Source: a virus
Taxonomy: Duplodnaviria > Heunggongvirae > Uroviricota > Caudoviricetes
IMG/VR virus record: IMGVR_UViG_2654587792_000016
Reading direction: 5' to 3' (one strand)
DNA: 13,993 nt
Within the stretch, counting starts at the first letter, position 1. Every line of letters starts with the position of its first letter. Shown in pieces: positions 31-11,411 of the stretch. A program made the position numbers and the translations under genes. The notes below the pieces were generated by a model. That model worked only from the letters and a program-made list of their open reading frames with translations, searched no databases and had not been told where the DNA came from.

Positions 31-507
31 ATGATGAACCCTGTTCCATGGCTCCAGATGACAAACATGATCTCATATCAGGGACTTGTTCGCACCTTCC
101 ATAGGCGTGCTGGCCTGATTTTGTGGAGAAAGTTGATGCGTGATATTCAAATGGTTCTTGAACGTTGGGGGGCATGGGTGGCAAATAATCACGAGGATGT
201 GGAATGGTCATCTGTTGCTGCAGGTTTTAAGGGATTAATTTCTTCGAAAGTAAAATCCCGCCCGCAATGTAGCGATGACGATGGCCTGATCATTAGCTCT
301 GCGATGACAGTTCTTAAGAAAAAGGAACCGTATCAATACGAATTACTGGAAATGTATTATGTGTATGGGGTTACATTACGGGCGTTGGGGGTAAAACTGG
401 GGATATCACTTAATCAGGTTGTTATCAGACTGCAGAAAGCTGAAGGGTTTATTGACGGTTGTCTGGCAATGTTGGGGGTATCTTTAGAAATTGATTGTTA
501 CATATAG
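31..507 (+). CDS. Q: Late-gene antitermination protein Q (Q82/QuuD-like family)
   Basis: 158-aa ORF with ATG ATG at 31-36 and TAG at 505-507. The stretch MRDIQMVLERWGAW...VAAGFKGLI...RPQC.DDDGLI..SAMTVLKK matches what I recall of E. coli prophage Q/QuuD antiterminators. It sits directly upstream of the cargo slot and lysis cassette, as Q does in lambdoid phages. True start (31 or an internal Met) is uncertain. Confidence 0.8.
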   Translation: MMNPVPWLQMTNMISYQGLVRTFHRRAGLILWRKLMRDIQMVLERWGAWVANNHEDVEWSSVAAGFKGLISSKVKSRPQCSDDDGLIISSAMTVLKKKEPYQYELLEMYYVYGVTLRALGVKLGISLNQVVIRLQKAEGFIDGCLAMLGVSLEIDCYI

Positions 508-1830: not shown

Positions 1831-2883
1831 ATGAAAAATACTGTAAAAATAAACAGTGTTGATTTAATCAACGCTGATTGCCTGCATTTTATTCAGTCCC
1901 TGCCTGATGATTCCATTGACCTGATTGTTACCGATCCGCCGTACTTCAAGGTGAAACCCAACGGTTGGGACAATCAGTGGAAAGGGGACGAAGATTACCT
2001 TAAGTGGCTGGACCACTGTCTGGCCCAGTTCTGGCGGGTGTTAAAACCTGCCGGAAGCCTTTATCTGTTCTGTGGGCATCGCCTGGCATCTGATATTGAG
2101 ATCATGATGCGTGAACGTTTCAACGTGCTTAACCATATCATCTGGGCGAAGCCGTCCGGACGTTGGAATGGGTGTAATAAAGAAAGTCTGCGCGCATATT
2201 TTCCTGCCACAGAGCGCGTTCTGTTTGCTGAACATTACCAGGGGCCATATCGCGGCAAAAGTGACGGCTATGCAGCAAAAGAAAGGGAACTCAAACAGCA
2301 CATAATGGCACCGCTGATATCGTATTTCAGGGATGCTCGTGCCGAACTGGGTATAACGGCAAAACAAATTGCCGAAGCCACAGGTAAGAAAAATATGGTT
2401 TCCCACTGGTTTGGTGCCAGTCAGTGGCAGTTGCCGAATGAGGCTGACTATCGGAAGTTACAGGCACTGTTTTCCCGTATAGCGGCAGAGAAGTTTCAGG
2501 AACAACAACTGGAACAACCACACCACCAGCTGGTGGCATCTTATGATTCACTGAATCGCAAATATTCTGAATTGCTGGATGAGTTTAAATCTCTCCGGCG
2601 CTATTTCTCCGTATCAGTCTCCGTGCCTTATACCGATGTCTGGACGCATAAACCCGTTCAGTTCTACCCGGGTAAACATCCGTGCGAGAAACCGGCGGAT
2701 ATGCTCCGGCAAATAATCAATGCCAGTAGTCGCCCTGGTGATATGGTTGCTGATTTCTTTATGGGATCCGGTTCCACAATAAAAGCAGCAATGGCGCTGG
2801 GGCGTCGGGCGTTAGGTGTTGAACTTGAGTCAGAGCGGTTTAATCAGACGGTGAAAGAGGTAAGTGAACTGGTGGGGAAATAA
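1831..2883 (+). CDS. DNA amino-methyltransferase (N6-adenine or N4-cytosine), beta-class, apparently orphan
   Basis: 350-aa ORF. Motif IV DPPY (LIVTDPPYF) is near the N-terminus and the SAM-binding motif I (FFMGSGST) near the C-terminus, the circular permutation typical of beta-class amino-MTases (CcrM/HinfI/PvuII-like). The roughly 250-aa region between them contains an HTH-like stretch (ITAKQIAEATGKKNMVSHWF). No restriction endonuclease ORF is adjacent. Confidence 0.85.
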   Translation: MKNTVKINSVDLINADCLHFIQSLPDDSIDLIVTDPPYFKVKPNGWDNQWKGDEDYLKWLDHCLAQFWRVLKPAGSLYLFCGHRLASDIEIMMRERFNVLNHIIWAKPSGRWNGCNKESLRAYFPATERVLFAEHYQGPYRGKSDGYAAKERELKQHIMAPLISYFRDARAELGITAKQIAEATGKKNMVSHWFGASQWQLPNEADYRKLQALFSRIAAEKFQEQQLEQPHHQLVASYDSLNRKYSELLDEFKSLRRYFSVSVSVPYTDVWTHKPVQFYPGKHPCEKPADMLRQIINASSRPGDMVADFFMGSGSTIKAAMALGRRALGVELESERFNQTVKEVSELVGK

Positions 2884-2959
2884 TTCTGGTGGCCACGTTG
2901 CGTGGCCTTTTTATTTCCAACACAGCACCCGCAAATATCGCGAGGTGAGAGATGACGAA

Positions 2960-3295
2960 ATGCCTCATAACCCAAATACCTGGCCGGACTGGCTGGAGTT
3001 GTTTCAGAGCTGGTGGCGTGGAGACACGCCGCTGGGTGCAGTGATTATGTCGATCGTTATGGCTGGTTTGCGCATCGCCTATTTTGGCGGTGGTGGTGGC
3101 TGGAAGCGAAAAACGCTCGAGATTTTGCTCTGTGGCGCTCTGACGCTGACCTTTGCATCCGCTCTTGAGTATGTCGGATGGCCTAAATCACTTTCTGTTG
3201 CCATTGGTGGCGGTGTGGGGCTGATCGGTGTCGATGCTATTCGTGGGGCTGCAATGCGAGTAATCGGTAACAAGTTTGGTGGCTCTAAGGAGTAA
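2960..3295 (+). CDS. S: Holin, lambda S-like class I (three predicted transmembrane segments)
   Basis: The track ORF 2864-3295 begins at a GTG inside the MTase 3' end; the preferred start is ATG 2960 with GAGGTGAGAG at 2942-2951. The hydrophobic segments and C-terminal VGLIGVDAIRGAAMRVIGNKFGGSKE align in pattern with lambda S ([20 protein letters not shown]). It lies immediately upstream of R. Confidence 0.8.
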   Translation: MPHNPNTWPDWLELFQSWWRGDTPLGAVIMSIVMAGLRIAYFGGGGGWKRKTLEILLCGALTLTFASALEYVGWPKSLSVAIGGGVGLIGVDAIRGAAMRVIGNKFGGSKE

Positions 3296-3298
3296 TTT

Positions 3299-3775
3299 AT
3301 GCAGGTACTAAATTCCCAGCGTAAAGCTTTCCTCGATATGTTGGCGTGGTCAGAAGGAACGGATAACGGGCGACAGCCAACCCGCAATCACGGCTACGAC
3401 GTTATTGTAGGTGGTGAGTTATTCACGGATTACTCCGATCATCCTCGCAAACTTGTCACGCTAAACCCCAAACTCAAATCAACAGCCGCCGGACGTTACC
3501 AGCTTCTTTCACGCTGGTGGGATGCTTACCGTAAACAGCTTGGCCTGAAAGATTTTTCTCCAGAAAGCCAGGACGCTGTAGCTCTGCAGCAGATTAAAGA
3601 GCGTGGCGCTTTACCGATGATTGATCGCGGTGATATTCGTCAGGCTATCGACCGTTGCAGCAATATCTGGGCTTCACTACCGGGCGCTGGTTATGGTCAG
3701 TTCGAGCATAAAGTTGACAGCCTGATTGCAAAATTCAAAGAAGCAGGCGGAACGGTCAGAGAGATTGAGGTATGA
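3299..3775 (+). CDS. R: Endolysin, lambda R-type lytic transglycosylase
   Basis: 158 aa, near-identical over most of its length to lambda R as I recall it ([82 protein letters not shown]). AAGGAG at 3287-3292 precedes the start. Stop TGA 3773-3775 overlaps the Rz ATG (ATGA). Confidence 0.95.
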
Positions 3776-4239
3776 GCAGAGTAACCGCGATTATCTCCGC
3801 TCTGGTTATTTGTATCATCGCCTGCCTGTCATGGGCTGTTAATCATTACCGTGATAACGCCATCGCCTACAAAGAACAGCGTGATAAAAAAGTCAGTGAG
3901 CTGAAGCAGGCGACCGCCACCATCGCTGACATGCAGCAGCGTCAGCGTGATGTTGCTGCGATCGATGCAAAATACACGAAGGAGTTAGCCGATGCGAAAA
4001 CTGAAAATGAAACTCTGCGCGCTGATGTTGCCGCTGGTCGTAAGCGCCTGCGGGTCAATGCCAGTTGCTCCGCAGCCGTGCGTGAAGCCACCGGACCCAC
4101 CAGCATGGATAATGCAACCAGCCCCCGACTGGCAGACACCGCTGAACGGGATTATTTCACCCTCAGAGAACGGTTGATGACGATGCAGAAGCAACTGGAA
4201 GGGGCGCAGGAATATATCCGCACCCAGCGCATTAAGTAG
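3772..4239 (+). CDS. Rz: Spanin, inner-membrane subunit (Rz)
   Basis: 155 aa. The N-terminus [32 protein letters not shown] and the C-terminal [27 protein letters not shown] closely match lambda Rz. Confidence 0.95.
3992..4177 (+). CDS. Rz1: Spanin, outer-membrane lipoprotein subunit (Rz1), embedded in Rz in the +1 frame
   Basis: 61-aa ORF wholly inside Rz. Signal peptide with lipobox (LVVSAC) and the Pro-rich [30 protein letters not shown] match lambda Rz1. GGAG at 3981-3984 is 7 nt before the ATG. Confidence 0.9.
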
Positions 4240-4623
4240 ATGGAGAAAAAACACGAATCTGTGGTTTTTACTGAGCGCGGTGTACACGGTGGAACATATG
4301 GCGGGAAGTTTGTTGCTTATGATTATGCAGCATGGCTAAACCCCGGATTTAAATATGCAGCCTATAAAGTCCTGGATGACTACTTCACCGGAGAACTTCA
4401 GCATCGCAACAGCTTAAGTGCGCAGCTCAATATGAAGTGTCATGAGTTTGATCAGAAAAAAGATATGGCGAGCTTCTGTGGACAAGGGCTGGCGGCATGG
4501 CGCTATACGAAGCCAGTGTTGGTCGCTGAGATTAACTCCCTGGCTAACCAGCTGCAGATAACGATCCCCGGGCTGTCCGGTATTTGCCGGTATGAAATTA
4601 CCGGAAGGCGCGCTCGTTACTGA
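4240..4623 (+). CDS. Hypothetical protein resembling the C-terminal half of a KilA-N domain; possibly a truncated remnant
   Basis: 127-aa ORF whose ATG directly abuts the Rz stop (TAGATG). GGTYGGKFVAYDYAAWLNPGF resembles the conserved C-terminal KilA-N motif (GTWVHPDLAIHFAQWLSPEF-like) from memory. The N-terminal half of the domain is absent and no strong SD is present. Confidence 0.4.
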   Translation: MEKKHESVVFTERGVHGGTYGGKFVAYDYAAWLNPGFKYAAYKVLDDYFTGELQHRNSLSAQLNMKCHEFDQKKDMASFCGQGLAAWRYTKPVLVAEINSLANQLQITIPGLSGICRYEITGRRARY

Positions 4624-4887
4624 GTAACAGCAGGCATTACAGCAGCCCTTCACTGAGGGGCTGCGATAATGTGAGGAATAAAAAACCGGCAGGGGAAATC
4701 CATTGAAGATTTGCCGGTGGCAAAAGATGGCCATGCTTTTAACCTTAGTAGCAGAGTTACGGAGTTCAACAACGACCGTCGCCGTTATCTTGCTGAAAGG
4801 CGTTTCAATGATTTTCATCAATTTATTCATCAGCAATGGTGATAATCACTCTCATTTTGGCGGGTCCTTCCGGTGGGGTGGCCTGCC

Positions 4888-4907
4888 ACGGGGCGGGAGC
4901 GTCGCGG
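4888..4907. other. Candidate cosN (cohesive-end nicking site)
   Basis: ACG|GGGCGGGAGCGT|CGCGG at 4888-4907 against lambda ACG|GGGCGGCGACCT|CGCGG: identical flanks and 9 of 12 positions in the presumed 12-nt cohesive end. It sits about 185 bp upstream of the terminase small subunit start, as in lambda. Confidence 0.6.
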
Positions 4908-4953
4908 AAAAAGGCTAGTTTTTGCATTTCCATGGCGGCGGCAACATGTTTAG

Positions 4954-5070
4954 TAATTTATTGATAATTAAAAGTTATTTCTCTTTTCACCTGTACAATA
5001 TTTTTTTCTCCCTGTCATTAGACCAGTTTGCAATTAATTGAAATATATAAATAAACCTGATTTTCACCTG
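4954..5070. promoter_or_regulatory. Candidate cosB: IHF consensus match plus direct repeats that could be small-terminase binding sites
   Basis: AT-rich segment between cosN and the Nu1-like gene. The minus strand of 4954-4966 reads TATCAATAAATTA, fitting the IHF core WATCAANNNNTTR. TTTTCACCTG occurs at 4984-4993 and 5061-5070, with a degenerate copy TTTTCTCCCTG at 5004-5014. Confidence 0.35.
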
Positions 5071-5086
5071 CCAGATGGAGTTGCTT

Positions 5087-5614
5087 ATGTCAAATGTGAG
5101 TGGGATCGGTGATGCTTATTACTGGAGTGTTTTTAAAATCGCCGAGGCCTTTGGGCTTCACCGGGACACAGTAAAAAAACGGCTCCTCGCGGCCAACACT
5201 CCTGTGGCTGCGACTGTCAGGGGGAACCCCGTTTACGCCCTGCAGCATGTCGGGCCAGCCCTGTTTAGTGTGAAGCATGAGGCAGCAGACTCTGTTCATG
5301 ATCCATCCCGTATGGAGCCGAAAGAGAGAAAGGACTGGTACCAGTCTGAAAATGAAAGGATCAAGCTGGAAAAGGAGCAGCGAAAACTCATCCCAGTTGA
5401 TGAAGTAGTCATCGTCTATTCGTCCATGAGAAAGGCTGTCGTCCAGGTTCTGGAGACAATTCCGGATGTTCTTGAACGCGATTGCGCCCTGACTCCTCAG
5501 GCCGTCGGCGTTGTACAGCAGGCCATTGATGACCTGCGATACACTCTTCAGGAAAAATCCTACGAGGCTTGTGCTGCTGAATTAATTCCTGATGAGGAAG
5601 GAGAGAGTCTCTAG
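5087..5614 (+). CDS. Terminase small subunit (Nu1-like DNA packaging protein)
   Basis: ORF 5075-5614; preferred start ATG 5087 with GGAG at 5077-5080. N-terminal HTH-like segment (FKIAEAFGLHRDTVKKRL), a central charged region resembling lambda Nu1, and a position between cos and the large terminase. Stop TAG 5612-5614. Confidence 0.7.
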   Translation: MSNVSGIGDAYYWSVFKIAEAFGLHRDTVKKRLLAANTPVAATVRGNPVYALQHVGPALFSVKHEAADSVHDPSRMEPKERKDWYQSENERIKLEKEQRKLIPVDEVVIVYSSMRKAVVQVLETIPDVLERDCALTPQAVGVVQQAIDDLRYTLQEKSYEACAAELIPDEEGESL

Positions 5615-5622
5615 GAGGAATA

Positions 5623-7722
5623 ATGGGTTTTTCATCAGCCCGAAATTTGGGAAGGGACATATCGGCAGGATTTTCCCCACCACGTCGCATGCCGATTTCG
5701 GAGGCTGTTAAAAAATTCATGCGTGTTCCCAAGGGGGCTGGTAACTCGGTGCCATGGGATCCTGAACTGACACCCTACATCATTGAGCCCATGAACTGCC
5801 TGGCATCGCGTGAATACGATGCGGTGATTTTTGTTGGTCCTGCGCGAACAGGGAAGACCATTGGTCTGATCGATGGATGGATTGTCTATACCATCGTTTG
5901 CGATCCTTCGGACATGCTCGTTGTGCAGATGACCGAAGATAAGGCCCGCGAGCATTCTAAAAAGCGCCTCGACAGAACGTTCAGAAGCAGTGCGGCGGTA
6001 AAGAAAAGAATGAGTCCACGTCGTAACGACAATAATGTTCATGATAAGACGTTCAGGGATGGCTCGTTCCTTAAAATTGGTTGGCCCTCGGTCAACATTA
6101 TGTCGTCGTCGGATTACCGGTTTGTCGCCTTAACCGATTACGACCGTTTTCCGGAGAATATCGACAGCGAGGGTGATGGTTTCTCCCTGGCCTCAAAACG
6201 TACCACCACATTTATGTCCGCCGGGATGACTCTGGTGGAGAGCTCGCCGGGACGTGACATCTGCGACAGCAAATGGCGACGTAAGTCGCCTCATGAAGCG
6301 CCACCGACGACTGGTATTCTTTCCCTTTACAATCGTGGTGACCGCCGCCGCTGGTACTGGCCATGTCCGCACTGCGGTGAATATTTTCAGCCAGCCATGG
6401 ATGCCATGACCGGCTACCGTAATGAACCGGATCCCTTTAAAGCCAGTGAGGCGGCGTATCTACTTTGCCCGCACTGCAGCGGCATTATCACTGCGGAGAA
6501 AAAGCGTGAGCTCAATAGTGCAGGAGTCTGGTTGCGTGAAGGTCAGGTCATTGATCGTAACGGCAACGTTTCCGGTGAACCGCGCCGCTCCCGTATCGCC
6601 AGTTTCTGGATGGAAGGGCCAGCTGCTGCGTATCAGACCTGGGCGCAACTGGTTTACAAATTACTGACTGCAGAACAGGAGTATGAAGCGACAGGAAGCG
6701 AAGAAACACTCAGGGCGGTTATCAATACCGACTGGGGATTACCTTATCTTCCCCGCGCCAGCATGGAGCAACGAAAAAGTGAACTGCTTGAGCAGCGGGC
6801 AGAGCCAGTTCCTTCCCGCAGTGTGCCGGATGGCGTTAATTTCCTTGTGGCGGCAGTGGATGTGCAGGCGGGACGTCATCGCCGTTTTGTGGTTCAGGTA
6901 ACGGGCTATGGCAGCCGTGGCGAACGCTGGATTATTGATCGTTACAACATCACGCAGTCATTGCGCGGTGACAGCGACGGGGAGAGCCAGCGAATTGATC
7001 CGGCCAGCTATCCGGAAGACTGGGATGTCCTGCTGACGGATGTTTTTCATAAAAGCTGGCCGCTGGCCTCCGATCCTTCTCAACAAATGCGACTGATGGC
7101 AATGGCGGTGGACTCCGGCGGTGAAGACGGGGTCACTGATAATGCCTATAAATTCTGGCGTCGTTGCCGTCGTGATGGCCTTGGTAAACGTATTTACCTG
7201 TTTAAGGGCGACAGCATCCGGCGCGCAAAACTGATCAGCCGTACATTCCCTGATAACACCGGACGAACGGGCCGACGGGCGCAGGCCGCAGGTGATGTGC
7301 CGCTCTGGTTTCTTCAGACGGATGCCCTGAAAGACCGGGTGAATAACGCGTTATGGCGTGACTCGCCAGGTCCCGGCTATGTGCATTTCCCTGACTGGCT
7401 GGGGAGCTGGTTTTACGACGAACTGACGTATGAAGAGCGGAGCAGTGACGGGAAATGGAGTAAACCGGGTCGCGGTGCCAACGAAGCTTTTGACCTGATG
7501 GTGTATGCCGAGGCTCTGGTCATTCTGCATGGATACGAAAAGATCCGCTGGCCGGATGCACCGGAGTGGGCGAGCCGGGAAACCTGGCTGGAGTGTGTCC
7601 CGGACAGTACCGAACCGTCACCCTCACCGGAACCGGTATCCACGCCTGTTAAAAAACAAAAACGGAAGAAAACAGTAACTGACGATGTTAACCCCTGGCT
7701 GACTTCCGGAGGATGGTTATGA
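5623..7722 (+). CDS. Terminase large subunit (lambda gpA family)
   Basis: 699 aa, AGGAGG at 5614-5619. Walker A-like VGPARTGKT, and size and position between the small terminase and gpW. Proline-rich, basic C-terminal tail (PSPSPEPVSTPVKKQKRKK). Confidence 0.9.
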   Translation: MGFSSARNLGRDISAGFSPPRRMPISEAVKKFMRVPKGAGNSVPWDPELTPYIIEPMNCLASREYDAVIFVGPARTGKTIGLIDGWIVYTIVCDPSDMLVVQMTEDKAREHSKKRLDRTFRSSAAVKKRMSPRRNDNNVHDKTFRDGSFLKIGWPSVNIMSSSDYRFVALTDYDRFPENIDSEGDGFSLASKRTTTFMSAGMTLVESSPGRDICDSKWRRKSPHEAPPTTGILSLYNRGDRRRWYWPCPHCGEYFQPAMDAMTGYRNEPDPFKASEAAYLLCPHCSGIITAEKKRELNSAGVWLREGQVIDRNGNVSGEPRRSRIASFWMEGPAAAYQTWAQLVYKLLTAEQEYEATGSEETLRAVINTDWGLPYLPRASMEQRKSELLEQRAEPVPSRSVPDGVNFLVAAVDVQAGRHRRFVVQVTGYGSRGERWIIDRYNITQSLRGDSDGESQRIDPASYPEDWDVLLTDVFHKSWPLASDPSQQMRLMAMAVDSGGEDGVTDNAYKFWRRCRRDGLGKRIYLFKGDSIRRAKLISRTFPDNTGRTGRRAQAAGDVPLWFLQTDALKDRVNNALWRDSPGPGYVHFPDWLGSWFYDELTYEERSSDGKWSKPGRGANEAFDLMVYAEALVILHGYEKIRWPDAPEWASRETWLECVPDSTEPSPSPEPVSTPVKKQKRKKTVTDDVNPWLTSGGWL

Positions 7723-7931: not shown

Positions 7932-9439
7932 TGGCAATTCTTGATGATGTGATTGGCGTTTTTTCACCAGGATGGAAAGCGGCAAGGCTGCGTTCCCGTG
8001 CGGTGATCCAGGCTTATGAGGCCGTAAAAACGACGCGGACACACAAAGCCCGACGGGAGAACCGAACTGCCGACCAGTTAAGCCAGTACGGGGCCGTGTC
8101 GTTACGTGAGCAGGCCCGTTACCTTGATAACAACCACGATCTGGTCATTGGTGTATTTGACAAGCTGGAAGAACGGGTGGTGGGGAAAAACGGGATTATT
8201 GTCGAGCCACATCCGGTATTACGCAATGGGGCCATTGCCCGTGATCTGGCAGCGGAGATACGCACCCGATGGAGTGAATGGTCTGTCAGTCCGGAAGTCA
8301 CCGGGCAGTTTACCCGTCCGATGCTGGAACGTCTGATGCTGCGTACCTGGCTGCGCGATGGTGAGGTGTTTGCCCAGATGGTTTCCGGGCGCATAAACAG
8401 CCTGACGCCTTCTGCCGGTGTTCATTTCTGGCTGGAGGCGCTCGAGCCGGACTTTATTCCCATGACCAGTGATGAGAGCAACAGGCTGAATCAGGGCGTG
8501 TTTGTTGATGACTGGGGGCGTCCCGAAAAATATCTGGTGTATAAAAGCCGTCCCGTATCCGGACGGCAGATGGAAACCAAAGAAGTGGATGCAGAGCGAA
8601 TGCTGCATCTTAAATTTGTTCGCCGTCTGCACCAGATGCGCGGGACGTCTTTATTGTCCGGTGTGCTGATCCGCCTCAGCGCCCTGAAAGAGTATGAAGA
8701 TTCTGAGCTGACTGCAGCAAGGATCGCCGCTGCTCTGGGGATGTACATCCGGAAAGGCGACGGACAGAGCTATGAAACGGATGGTAATGACAGCAAGGAG
8801 AATGAACGCGAGCTTACCATTCAGCCAGGCATTATTTACGACGATCTGAAACCCGGCGAAGAAATCGGAATGGTGAAGTCGGATCGTCCCAATCCTAACC
8901 TGGAAACTTTTCGTAATGGTCAGTTGCGTGCCGTGGCGGCGGGCAGTCGTCTGAGTTTTTCCAGTACGGCACGCAACTATAACGGCACTTACAGCGCCCA
9001 GCGTCAGGAACTGGTTGAGTCTACTGATGGCTACCTGATCCTGCAGGACTGGTTTATTGGTGCCGTCACCCGTCCGATGTATCGTGCCTGGCTGAAACAG
9101 GCTGTGGCATCCGGTGTTATCAGGCTACCCCGCGATCTTGACCGTTCTTCACTGTATACCGCGGTGTATTTCGGACCAGTGATGCCGTGGATTGACCCTG
9201 TTAAGGAGGCTGAGGCCTGGAAAATCCAGATTCGTGGTGGAGCGGCGACAGAATCAGACTGGGTACGTGCTGGTGGTCGTAATCCGGATGATGTCAAACG
9301 TCGGCGCAAGGCCGAAATTGATGAAAACCGCAAGCTGGATCTGGTATTTGATACCGATCCGGCCAGTGATAAAGGAGGCAGCAGTGCCGCAACGAAACGA
9401 CAGGAGCCGCAGCACACCGACGACCAGTCCGAAGAATAA
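7931..9439 (+). CDS. Portal protein (lambda gpB family)
   Basis: 502 aa from ATG 7931, which overlaps the gpW stop (TGATG); GAGG at 7922-7925. The track ORF from 7859 is an upstream extension. Size and synteny fit, and SLREQARY resembles lambda B SLREYAGY. Confidence 0.85.
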   Translation: MAILDDVIGVFSPGWKAARLRSRAVIQAYEAVKTTRTHKARRENRTADQLSQYGAVSLREQARYLDNNHDLVIGVFDKLEERVVGKNGIIVEPHPVLRNGAIARDLAAEIRTRWSEWSVSPEVTGQFTRPMLERLMLRTWLRDGEVFAQMVSGRINSLTPSAGVHFWLEALEPDFIPMTSDESNRLNQGVFVDDWGRPEKYLVYKSRPVSGRQMETKEVDAERMLHLKFVRRLHQMRGTSLLSGVLIRLSALKEYEDSELTAARIAAALGMYIRKGDGQSYETDGNDSKENERELTIQPGIIYDDLKPGEEIGMVKSDRPNPNLETFRNGQLRAVAAGSRLSFSSTARNYNGTYSAQRQELVESTDGYLILQDWFIGAVTRPMYRAWLKQAVASGVIRLPRDLDRSSLYTAVYFGPVMPWIDPVKEAEAWKIQIRGGAATESDWVRAGGRNPDDVKRRRKAEIDENRKLDLVFDTDPASDKGGSSAATKRQEPQHTDDQSEE

Positions 9440-9452
9440 TTCCTGGTTCAGG

Positions 9453-11411
9453 ATGCAGGCTGGTCACCAGAGTGACGCGGATATTTATATTTATGACGAG
9501 ATTGGTTTCTGGGGTGTTACAGCGAAGCAGTTTATCAGTGATCTGAATGCACTGGGCGATATCACCCACATTAATCTTCATATTAATTCACCGGGTGGCG
9601 ATGTCTTTGAAGGCATCGCCATTTTTAATGCACTGAAAACACATGGTGCGTCCATTACCGTTTATGTCGACGGTGTGGCGGCGTCAATGGCGTCGGTCAT
9701 TGCGATGGTGGGAAACCCGGTCATTATGCCGGAAAACACTTTCATGATGATTCATAAACCATTTGGCTTTACGGGCGGTGATGCGGAGGACATGCGCACC
9801 TATGCCGACCTGCTCGATAAAGTTGAGGCGGTTCTGTTACCCGCTTATGCACAGAAAACCGGGAAAACCACCGATGAAATTGCTGCCATGCTGGCGGATG
9901 AGACCTGGATGTCCGGTGCCGAATGTCTGGCACATGGATTTGCTGATCAGGTAACGCCAGCCGTTAAGGCAATGGCATGTATTCAGTCAAAACGTACAGA
10001 GGAATTTAAAAAGATGCCGGAATCCATTCGAAACATGATTACTCCGCCACGCAACAGTGCTCCACGCGTACAGGATGATGAACCTGCAGCCTCCCGGACG
10101 CCAGTGCAGGCAGCAGCACCCGTGGTGGATGAAAACAGTATCCGTGCGCAGGTACTGGCAGAGCAAAAAGCGCGTGTAAACGGTATTAATGATCTGTTTG
10201 CCATGTTTGGCGGGCGTTATCAGACGCTGCAGGCTCAGTGTCTTGCCGATCCTGAATGTTCGCTGGAGCAGGCCCGCGAAAAGCTGTTGAACGAGATGGG
10301 GCGCGAGTCCACGCCATCCAATAAAAATACCCCGGCTCATATTTATGCCGGTAACGGTAATTTTGTGGGGGACGGGATCCGCCAGGCGCTGATGGCGCGT
10401 GCCGGATTTGAAAAAACCGAACGTGATAATGTCTACAACGGGATGACCCTGCGTGAATATGCCCGTATGTCACTGACTGAACGGGGTATTGGGGTTTCCG
10501 GTTATAACCCGATGCAGATGGTCGGTGCGGCGTTCACACACAGTACGTCTGACTTCGGTAATATTCTGCTGGATGTTGCGAACAAAGCCATTCTGCAGGG
10601 CTGGGAAGATGCCCCTGAAACCTATGAACAGTGGACGCGGAAAGGTCAGTTGTCTGATTTTAAAATTGCCCATCGTGTGGGTATGGGGGGCTTCAGTGCT
10701 CTGCGTCAGGTGCGTGAAGGGGCGGAATATAAATACGTCACCACCGGAGATAAACAGGCCACTATTGCACTGGCGACCTATGGCGAGCTGTTCAGTATCA
10801 CCCGTCAGGCCATTATCAATGATGATCTGAATATGCTGACCGATGTCCCGATGAAACTGGGCCGTGCGGCGAAATCCACCATTGCCGATCTGGTTTATGC
10901 CATTCTGACGTCTAACCCGAAAATCTCCACAGATAATGTAAGTCTGTTCGATAAAGCGAAACATGCAAACGTACTGGAGAGCGCTGCAATGGACGTGGCA
11001 TCGCTGGATAAAGCCCGCCAGTTGATGCGCGTTCAGAAAGAGGGGGAGCGTCATCTGAATATTCGTCCTGCGTTCGTACTGGTACCGACGGCGATGGAGT
11101 CTGTTGCTAACCAGGTCATTCGCTCCTCAAGTGTCAAGGGGGCTGACATTAACGCCGGTATTATTAACCCGGTGAAAGATTTTGCGACCGTTATTGCAGA
11201 GCCTCGTCTTGATGATAACAGCCAGACCACCTTCTACCTGGCTGCGTCCAAAGGCTCCGATACGATTGAAGTGGCTTATCTCAACGGTGTGGATACGCCA
11301 TATATTGATCAGATGGAGGGCTTCAGTGTGGATGGCGTGACAACGAAAGTGCGTATTGACGCCGGTGTCGCGCCAGTTGATCACCGCGGTCTGGTGAAAT
11401 GTACGGCGTAA
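9453..11411 (+). CDS. Fused head maturation protease (ClpP/S14-like) - scaffold - major capsid protein, a tripartite capsid gene
   Basis: 652 aa from ATG 9453; the track ORF from 9192 overlaps the portal in another frame. The N-terminal roughly 170 aa is ClpP-like (IYIYDEIGFWGV, INSPGGDVFEG, catalytic-Ser context GVAASMAS, His context MIHKP). The middle is a charged, Ala/Gln-rich linker; the C-terminal roughly 300 aa is capsid-like. The domain boundaries are estimates. Weak SD. Confidence 0.85.
   Translation: MQAGHQSDADIYIYDEIGFWGVTAKQFISDLNALGDITHINLHINSPGGDVFEGIAIFNALKTHGASITVYVDGVAASMASVIAMVGNPVIMPENTFMMIHKPFGFTGGDAEDMRTYADLLDKVEAVLLPAYAQKTGKTTDEIAAMLADETWMSGAECLAHGFADQVTPAVKAMACIQSKRTEEFKKMPESIRNMITPPRNSAPRVQDDEPAASRTPVQAAAPVVDENSIRAQVLAEQKARVNGINDLFAMFGGRYQTLQAQCLADPECSLEQAREKLLNEMGRESTPSNKNTPAHIYAGNGNFVGDGIRQALMARAGFEKTERDNVYNGMTLREYARMSLTERGIGVSGYNPMQMVGAAFTHSTSDFGNILLDVANKAILQGWEDAPETYEQWTRKGQLSDFKIAHRVGMGGFSALRQVREGAEYKYVTTGDKQATIALATYGELFSITRQAIINDDLNMLTDVPMKLGRAAKSTIADLVYAILTSNPKISTDNVSLFDKAKHANVLESAAMDVASLDKARQLMRVQKEGERHLNIRPAFVLVPTAMESVANQVIRSSSVKGADINAGIINPVKDFATVIAEPRLDDNSQTTFYLAASKGSDTIEVAYLNGVDTPYIDQMEGFSVDGVTTKVRIDAGVAPVDHRGLVKCTA

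Follow-up and report, generated by a model that had tools for sequence, protein, structure and literature searches.

Where is the DNA of this prophage cut when it is packaged, and what does its terminase recognize at the cut? The window (the whole stretch of DNA analysed here, 13,993 bp) contains a 450-bp non-coding stretch between a small Rha/ORF11CD3-domain reading frame and the gene for the small terminase subunit (TerS). The original prediction placed a candidate cos site there, with a lambda-like cosN followed by a cosB-like region. That reading is supported by the ends of the deposited cdtI and Tritos genomes, by the flanking genes, and by a conserved IHF site. Judging from the sequence, we put at roughly 0.88 the probability that positions 4862-5070 (Table 1) are a lambda-type cos site of a cdtI/Tritos-like lambdoid Escherichia coli prophage and work as lambda cos does.

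Table 1. Features of the predicted cos region and its neighbouring genes; offsets (+) are counted from the predicted top-strand nick.
Feature	Sequence	Position	Offset	Strand	Remarks
Q-like antiterminator gene		31-507			
DNA methyltransferase gene		1831-2883			
Holin gene		2864-3295			
Endolysin gene		3299-3775			
Rz gene		3772-4239			
Small Rha/ORF11CD3-domain ORF		4240-4623			
cosQ-like heptamer	GGGTCCT	4862-4868		+	Identical to lambda cosQ (packaging-termination signal in lambda)
cosN, predicted	CG/GGGCGGGAGCGT/CG	4889-4904			Predicted 12-nt 5' cohesive end, 4891-4902
Conserved post-nick block	CGCGGAAAAAGGCTAGTTTTTG	4903-4924		+	Kept across 13 cos regions spanning genera
R3-position element	GGCAACATGTTTAG	4940-4953	+50 to +63	+	At the lambda R3 distance; conserved island in the 13-taxon alignment
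IHF site I1, predicted	TATCAATAAATTA	4954-4966	+64 to +76	-	Perfect match to consensus WATCAANNNNTTR
Repeat copy 1	TTTTCACCTG	4984-4993	+94 to +103	+	Exact; CACCTG core at +98; lambda R2-like position
Conserved block	CTGTCATTAGACCAG	5012-5026		+	Matches the +125 box of relatives, TGTCACCTC; box core lost in the window
Second, weaker IHF-like match	TTTCAATTAATTG	5031-5043		-	8/9; TTGA conserved in the column block
Repeat copy 2	TTTTCACCTG	5061-5070	+171 to +180	+	Exact; CACCTG core at +175; lambda R1-like position
TerS gene (DUF1441/phrog_141)		5075-5614		+	Pfam DUF1441, 1.7e-44; phrog_141 'terminase small subunit', 8e-65
TerL gene (lambda gpA family)		5623-7722		+	Pfam GpA_ATPase, 4.9e-81; GpA_nuclease, 3.8e-86

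The predicted site lies between the lysis and terminase genes, which is exactly the location of cos in lambda. Downstream of the gene for the large terminase subunit (TerL) follow genes for a gpW-like adaptor, a lambda-family portal, a ClpP-protease/major-capsid fusion, a decoration protein, and neck and tail-terminator proteins. Many E. coli chromosomes carry prophages that match the window at 98-99% identity over 13.9 kb. A scan of positions 4200-5300 for promoters and terminators finds nothing that would break up the late transcript, and an Rfam search of the region returns no match.

TerL combines an ATPase with an endonuclease and is the predicted enzyme that nicks cosN. The true start of TerS is probably the ATG at 5087, and all TerS relatives start at MSN.... 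Comparison of TerS with lambda Nu1 by BLASTP and with PDB sequences by phmmer gives nothing significant, and a Pfam search at E <= 10 returns DUF1441 only. Because these direct comparisons give no significant match, homology of TerS to Nu1 rests on PHROG cross-hits and hhalign. TerS hits the Nu1 family phrog_57 at 1e-9 and Nu1 hits phrog_141 at 6e-8, with both hits covering almost the entire length. When a profile built from 38 DUF1441 proteins is compared with Nu1 and the Gifsy-1 TerS by hhalign, the alignment is collinear and full-length, with an E value of 0.002 and a probability of only 12.8%. In this alignment, the recognition-helix region of Nu1 (residues 17-24, SIRTIQNW) falls on HRDTVKKRL of the window protein, and the GKGNEV wing falls on VRGNPV. 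We treat TerS as a putative remote Nu1 homologue with a predicted N-terminal helix-turn-helix.

The left part of the predicted site resembles lambda closely. A heptamer identical to lambda cosQ, which is absent from the original description, lies 29 nt ahead of the nick, compared with 30 nt in lambda. In a set of 82 E. coli sequences with essentially the same TerS, cosQ is unchanged in all 82 and cosN is identical in 81; the spacer between them is variable. The context of cosN is ...CCACG/GGGCGGGAGCGT/CGCGG, where the top-strand nick is predicted to follow 4890 and the bottom-strand nick 4902. Both flanks (ACG and CGCGG) agree with those of lambda, as originally stated. The cohesive end itself is identical to that of lambda, GGGCGGCGACCT, at eight of 12 positions, which corrects the nine that had been claimed. 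The left half matches at six of six positions, and all four differences (positions 7, 8, 9, and 11) are within the right half (positions 7-12). A search with the lambda 20-mer ACGGGGCGGCGACCTCGCGG allowing up to three mismatches returns no match, because the site carries four.

These departures fit the natural variation described by Feiss et al., in which positions 7-12 of lambda-like cosN are variable and tolerant of mutation, and conservation covers cosQ, the left half, and the CG flanks. Feiss et al. define lambda-like cos phages by 12-nt 5' cohesive ends similar to those of lambda; of the features of this group, the window has the similarity of the end sequence, the CG flanks, an upstream GGGTCCT, and a TerL of the gpA family. 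The GC content is 63-70% from cosQ to cosN and 25-32% in cosB, in line with the AT-rich stretch that had been noted before the small terminase gene. A 'hypothetical protein' (4703-4918) of related phage records runs across the predicted cleavage site.

The predicted nick coincides with the ends of deposited phage genomes. In a megablast search of phage records, those of phage cdtI (AB285204/NC_009514, 47,021 bp) and of Tritos, a phage of E. coli LF82 (OV696610, linear), start at window base 4891. Both records begin with GGGCGGGAGCGTCGCGG and end with ...CTGCCACG (...CCACG, corresponding to window base 4890). The TerS proteins of both phages are 100% identical to the window TerS, the DNA is 99.4-99.6% identical over window positions 4891-5700 (cos, TerS, and the start of TerL), and nothing material differs in cos. 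The DNA of Tritos upstream of cosQ is unrelated to the window, yet GGGTCCTCCCGGTGGGGGCCCCTGCCACG is retained; by its sequence, the right end of Tritos is mosaic. Analogy to lambda may have guided the choice of where the two records start. Termini are not addressed in the Tritos paper, neither record annotates cosB subsites, and a literature search with the cohesive-end sequence returns no phage paper. We infer that the physical virion ends of the window prophage lie at 4890/4891. The expectation that the virion ends fall inside the window is supported by the two records, which begin and end at the predicted nick, and by the lysis genes on one side and the terminase and head genes on the other.

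If the site works as lambda cos does, the substrate would be concatemeric or circular phage DNA, on which TerS would bind the AT-rich cosB (about 4925-5070), and host IHF would bend the DNA at the predicted I1 site and aid TerS binding. Bound TerS would place the gpA-family TerL on cosN, where nicking of both strands would leave 12-nt 5' overhangs. Packaging would proceed rightward from the terminase genes and halt at the next cos, a step that would need cosQ. With such a cut and such a direction, the lysis genes would therefore form the right end of the virion DNA, and the terminase and head genes would form the left end.

In lambda, R3 occupies 50-65, the best match to the I1 consensus 79-91, the inverted R2 109-124, and R1 151-166, and Nu1 starts at 191. 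The window has the same layout, with cosB between cosN and the TerS gene, a TerS start at +185/+197, and an IHF site after the R3 position (+64, compared with +79 in lambda). The predicted I1 falls between the R3 and R2 positions, as it does in the complex cosB of lambda, 21, phi80, and Gifsy-1. The match to the IHF consensus reported in the original prediction has no mismatch and is unique within the window. Because 0.47 matches per window are expected by chance, the match alone is weak, and its position and conservation carry the weight. A perfect consensus is present at +64 on the minus strand in nine of 13 related cos regions and at +62 on the minus strand in phage phi458, and the IHF core is unchanged in all 82 E. 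coli copies. IHF probably binds at I1. A function of the second, weaker match would be speculative.

To compare cosB among relatives, we scanned one genome per species with the window TerS. TerS is 86% identical in Scandinavium and 51-68% identical in Buttiauxella, Edwardsiella, Yersinia, Providencia, Proteus, Rouxiella, Rahnella, and Xenorhabdus; relatives are also found in marine gamma-proteobacteria. We aligned 13 enterobacterial cos regions, among them the window and Providencia phage PSTCR8lys. They are collinear from cosQ to the TerS start within 1-2 bp, with 196-201 nt from the nick to the ATG. On the cosQ side, the conserved islands are the cosQ position, CCACG/GGGCGG.../CGCGG, and then CGCGGRAAACGGCTAGTTTT and ATTTYCATG. 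In cosB, the islands are CAGCAGCAGGTG at the lambda R3 distance, the IHF core, a box at +98, TGTCACC at +125, TCACCTGACAG at +174, and a GAGGTG Shine-Dalgarno sequence at +187. Boxes of the type CACCTS/SAGGTG are fixed at +55, +98, +125, +174, and +187, up to five in a region and in mixed orientations. Each cosB contains two to five of them, whereas dinucleotide shuffles would give 0.05-0.13 (P <= 0.0005 for 11 of the 13 regions).

The direct repeats of the window belong to this array. The two copies of TTTTCACCTG are, as originally described, the only exact ones in 14 kb, and both are within cosB, where two core hexamers are observed and 0.05 are expected (dinucleotide shuffles, P ~0.0005). 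A box at +97/+98 is present in nine of the 13 relatives, mainly as SAGGTG, that is, in the opposite orientation, and 11 of the 13 have a CACCTG box at +173 to +175. By alignment, the two copies are the +98 and +175 boxes of the conserved array, not a chance repeat. Of the +125 box, the window retains only the flanking CTGTCA. The 'degenerate third' copy (about 5003-5014) that had been proposed aligns with no conserved box in the relatives, and we do not retain it.

The proposal that small-terminase R sites flank an IHF bend holds in part. The copies occupy R2-like and R1-like positions, but both are downstream of the IHF site and in direct orientation, whereas lambda R2 is inverted relative to R1. 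The boxes are CACCTG and not the lambda R consensus, and a complex cosB with three R copies and an inverted R2 is not what the window presents. No copy of the repeat is found upstream of the IHF site, and no R3 copy is recognizable. The element at the R3 position is not a copy of TTTTCACCTG; its counterparts are CAGCAGCAGGTG in relatives and GGCAGCATGTTTGG in most E. coli copies. Around the window IHF site, a search for inverted repeats finds only AT-rich pairs at chance level.

Variation within E. coli bears on what the boxes do. Copy 2 is identical in 80 of the 82 E. coli copies. Copy 1 is altered in 24, with 58 exact, 11 carrying TTTTCAGCTG, and 11 carrying TTTTTACCTG. Diversity within this set is too low for a clean footprint, and copy 1 is among the more variable spots. 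The core is an E-box-like CANNTG, in which a flip of orientation changes the central two bases only, and the common variant TTTTCAGCTG preserves CANNTG. No covariation of protein and DNA is apparent across the relatives. In L005, the nearest relative outside E. coli, whose TerS is 86% identical and has the same predicted recognition helix (HRDTVKKRL), bases are changed in both boxes, and CACCTG is retained where the helix reads NRGTVKKRL; helix and box follow no consistent rule. Because copy 1 varies with the same TerS and no covariation is found, we go no further than calling the boxes plausible TerS binding sites. TerS most likely contacts the two CACCTG boxes (+98 and +175) together with the R3-position element at about +50-63, which itself would be a TerS site by position and conservation.

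The same observations allow a real cos in which the TTTTCACCTG copies are not TerS sites, a reading that we consider possible but doubtful. Copy 2, which ends 5-17 nt ahead of the TerS start, would then be part of the translation-initiation region of TerS, where CACCU pairs with the AGGUG of the Shine-Dalgarno sequence in a sequestering hairpin. Copy 1 would be tolerated AT-rich spacer, consistent with its polymorphism alongside one TerS. TerS would act mainly on the R3-position element, as in N15. RNAalifold predicts the CACCU/AGGUG stem over the Shine-Dalgarno sequence in eight to nine of 10 relatives; R3 is the critical site in lambda, and N15 requires one R site only, at bp 48-59. The stem, however, is weak (consensus -5 kcal/mol), is invariant and so lacks covariation, and has a C-U mismatch in the window. 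The hairpin also leaves unexplained why the same hexamer occurs in relatives at four other fixed positions far from start codons. The simple cosB of N15 lacks the IHF/R2/R1 arrangement; a perfect IHF site with boxes downstream of it is retained in the window. N15 is a possible model for the window if the +50-63 element alone matters, and pairing with the Shine-Dalgarno sequence may be an alternative or additional reason for the conservation of copy 2.

Comparison with named phages places the specificity determinant in cosB. Phages mEp213, LLS, mEp460, phi458, and Gifsy-2 have a DUF1441 TerS (~41% identity), a gpA-family TerL, and the same head module with a ClpP-capsid fusion. Between a point upstream of cosQ and +34 (4924), phi458 does not differ from the window, the cohesive end included. 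Beyond +34 it has a different cosB, in which CCACTGTAAT and ATTACAGTGG are inverted around its IHF site, and a TerS that is 42% identical. The cosB of Gifsy-2 has CACTGAA-type boxes. The differing boxes of phi458 and Gifsy-2 indicate, from sequence comparison, distinct packaging specificities. Lambda and phage 21 likewise have cosQ and cosN in common and a distinct cosB/TerS specificity (Feiss et al.). phi458 and the window mirror this pair, with cosB co-varying with TerS while cosQ and cosN are common, and the analogy places the determinant in 4925-5070.

The site is widespread. Of 5,426 complete E. coli genomes, 887 contain at least 80% of 4855-5090; for the cosQ-cosN part alone, the number is 2,189. 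Many prophages in those 887 genomes have likely decayed, and only 14 kb of this prophage is visible. The cos sequence could be intact in a defective or cryptic prophage, as a relic or dependent on a helper for terminase. We regard this as unlikely, since every late gene visible in the window is full-length, with 98-99% identity to its counterparts in other strains, and window positions 4891-5700 are nearly identical to phages cdtI and Tritos, as described above.

The cut could also be made here with a stagger other than 12 nt, which would shift the ends by a few bases. Phage Cr-LKS3, whose TerS is of the same family (38% identical to the window TerS), reportedly has 5' cohesive ends of 9 nt whose flanks resemble those of lambda, and the left half of cosN is divergent in other members of the wider family, for example L005, L007, and L014. 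In the window, by contrast, the CG dinucleotides at the two predicted nicks enclose exactly 12 nt, which is also the case in lambda and for the cosN-like sequence of Salmonella Gifsy-1, and the left half is that of lambda. The record of LLS annotates a 12-nt cohesive site, GGGCGGCGCGCT. The Gifsy-1 record contains the cosQ heptamer GGGTCCT, then TTACG, GGGCGGCAGCGT, and CGCAGG; GGGCGGCAGCGT is 11/12 identical to the window end, one base off. According to Feiss et al., Gifsy-1 is lambda-like and departs from lambda at positions 8, 9, and 11, and the record agrees with that description. Gifsy-1 differs from the window in having lambda-type heads and a TerS of the Nu1/phage-21 type, and therefore a different cosB. 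A different stagger in the window is, on this comparison, very improbable. Headful (pac) packaging with a fortuitous resemblance to cosN is effectively refuted: we find no support for it, TerL is of the gpA family associated with 5' cohesive ends and not of a headful type, cosQ, cosN, and their spacing are all matched, and the ends of deposited genomes are defined and fall at the predicted nick.

The box array suggests a tentative and rather improbable extension, in which DUF1441-TerS phages would have their own cosB grammar of up to five fixed CANNTG boxes (CACCTG, CAGGTG, or CAGCTG) that flip orientation in place. The last pair brackets the TerS Shine-Dalgarno sequence, where terminase binding to cosB or an mRNA hairpin could tune TerS synthesis, and two boxes would be left in the window lineage. 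If so, with two boxes surviving, dependence would be reduced to few sites, much as in N15.

Deposited phage genomes begin and end at the same cut, and the site is of a textbook class; current understanding of cos packaging is left unchanged. What the comparison adds is only where the CACCTG boxes stand in phages with a DUF1441 TerS and the mosaic joint between cosN and cosB at +34. The box map and the exact joint provide ready constructs for work on packaging specificity in this poorly studied group. For annotation, the virion left end would be set at 4891 and the right end at 4890 for a prophage type present in about one-sixth of complete E. coli genomes.

Comparison with phage phi458 (L126) reveals a sharp mosaic joint at window 4924/4925, 34 nt past the predicted nick. 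Upstream of the joint, phi458 is identical to the window, including cosQ, cosN, and the same cohesive end. Downstream of the joint, phi458 is unrelated to the window, with a different cosB and a TerS that is 42% identical.

The true start of TerS is probably the ATG at 5087 (MSNVSG...), not the ATG at 5075 as in the annotation of phage cdtI. The codon at 5087 is preceded by GGAG, and the equivalent MSN/MST codon is the TerS start in 13 of 13 relatives. In addition, the CACCU of repeat copy 2 is able to pair with AGGUG, the Shine-Dalgarno sequence of TerS (window 5065-5084; equivalents in the relatives' loci L005-L016). The stem comprises 5-6 bp (consensus energy, -5 kcal/mol) and is seen in 8-9 of 10 relatives; the window's own stem has one C-U mismatch. 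Covariation in this stem was looked for across the relatives, and none was found.

Other open reading frames in the window, together with the putative variant cosQ of most relatives, are listed below.

Features of the window and of the cosQ position in related loci
Feature	Position	Strand	Remarks
ClpP-like prohead protease and major capsid protein domain fusion	9192-11411	+	single 739-aa ORF, TTG start
127-aa ORF	4240-4623	+	C-terminal ORF11CD3/Rha-like domain only; between Rz and cos
71-aa ORF	4703-4918	+	TTG start; spans cosQ and cosN
AAAGGTACTCC at cosQ position	~25-35 nt before nick		L005, L007-L013, L015, L016, L125, Gifsy-2 (L124)

The protease–capsid fusion has the same arrangement as that already described in Gifsy-2, and ~250 nt of its ORF are shared with the 3' end of the portal gene. 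The 127-aa ORF lies at the far right end of the virion genome; it could represent either a moron or a truncated remnant. Its homologue in cdtI is orf60, for which the record remarks that the "start codon is not identified". The product of the 71-aa ORF matches phrog_17397 (2.7e-7). The homologous stretch upstream of cosQ in phi458 contains a shorter ORF, Orf24, labelled "hypothetical protein", and the matched stretches in mEp460-type records likewise overlie hypothetical proteins. In virion DNA, the 71-aa ORF would be severed, and it is probably an over-annotation.

Two database matches deserve comment. The cos and TerS of this E. coli phage recur at 99% identity on a contig assigned to a Veillonella parvula MAG (L004, JAGZPX010000007.1), suggesting contamination during binning. 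The Halomonas match (L041, CAZZCJ010000009.1) is a false positive, a CRISPR array caught by a short peptide pattern.

In most relatives, Gifsy-2 included, AAAGGTACTCC replaces GGGTCCT at the cosQ position. Because natural variation of cosQ is not apparent in the published account, AAAGGTACTCC is read here as what looks like, from sequence, a second cosQ type in phages with a DUF1441 TerS. The left half of cosN is divergent at the nick in four relatives (L005, L007, L008, and L014); Scandinavium reads ACCGAG/GGGGCGAGGAC and Edwardsiella reads CTGCG/GGTCACGCGCC, the slash marking the putative nick. Therefore, the "invariant" left half of cosN varies across the wider DUF1441-TerS family.
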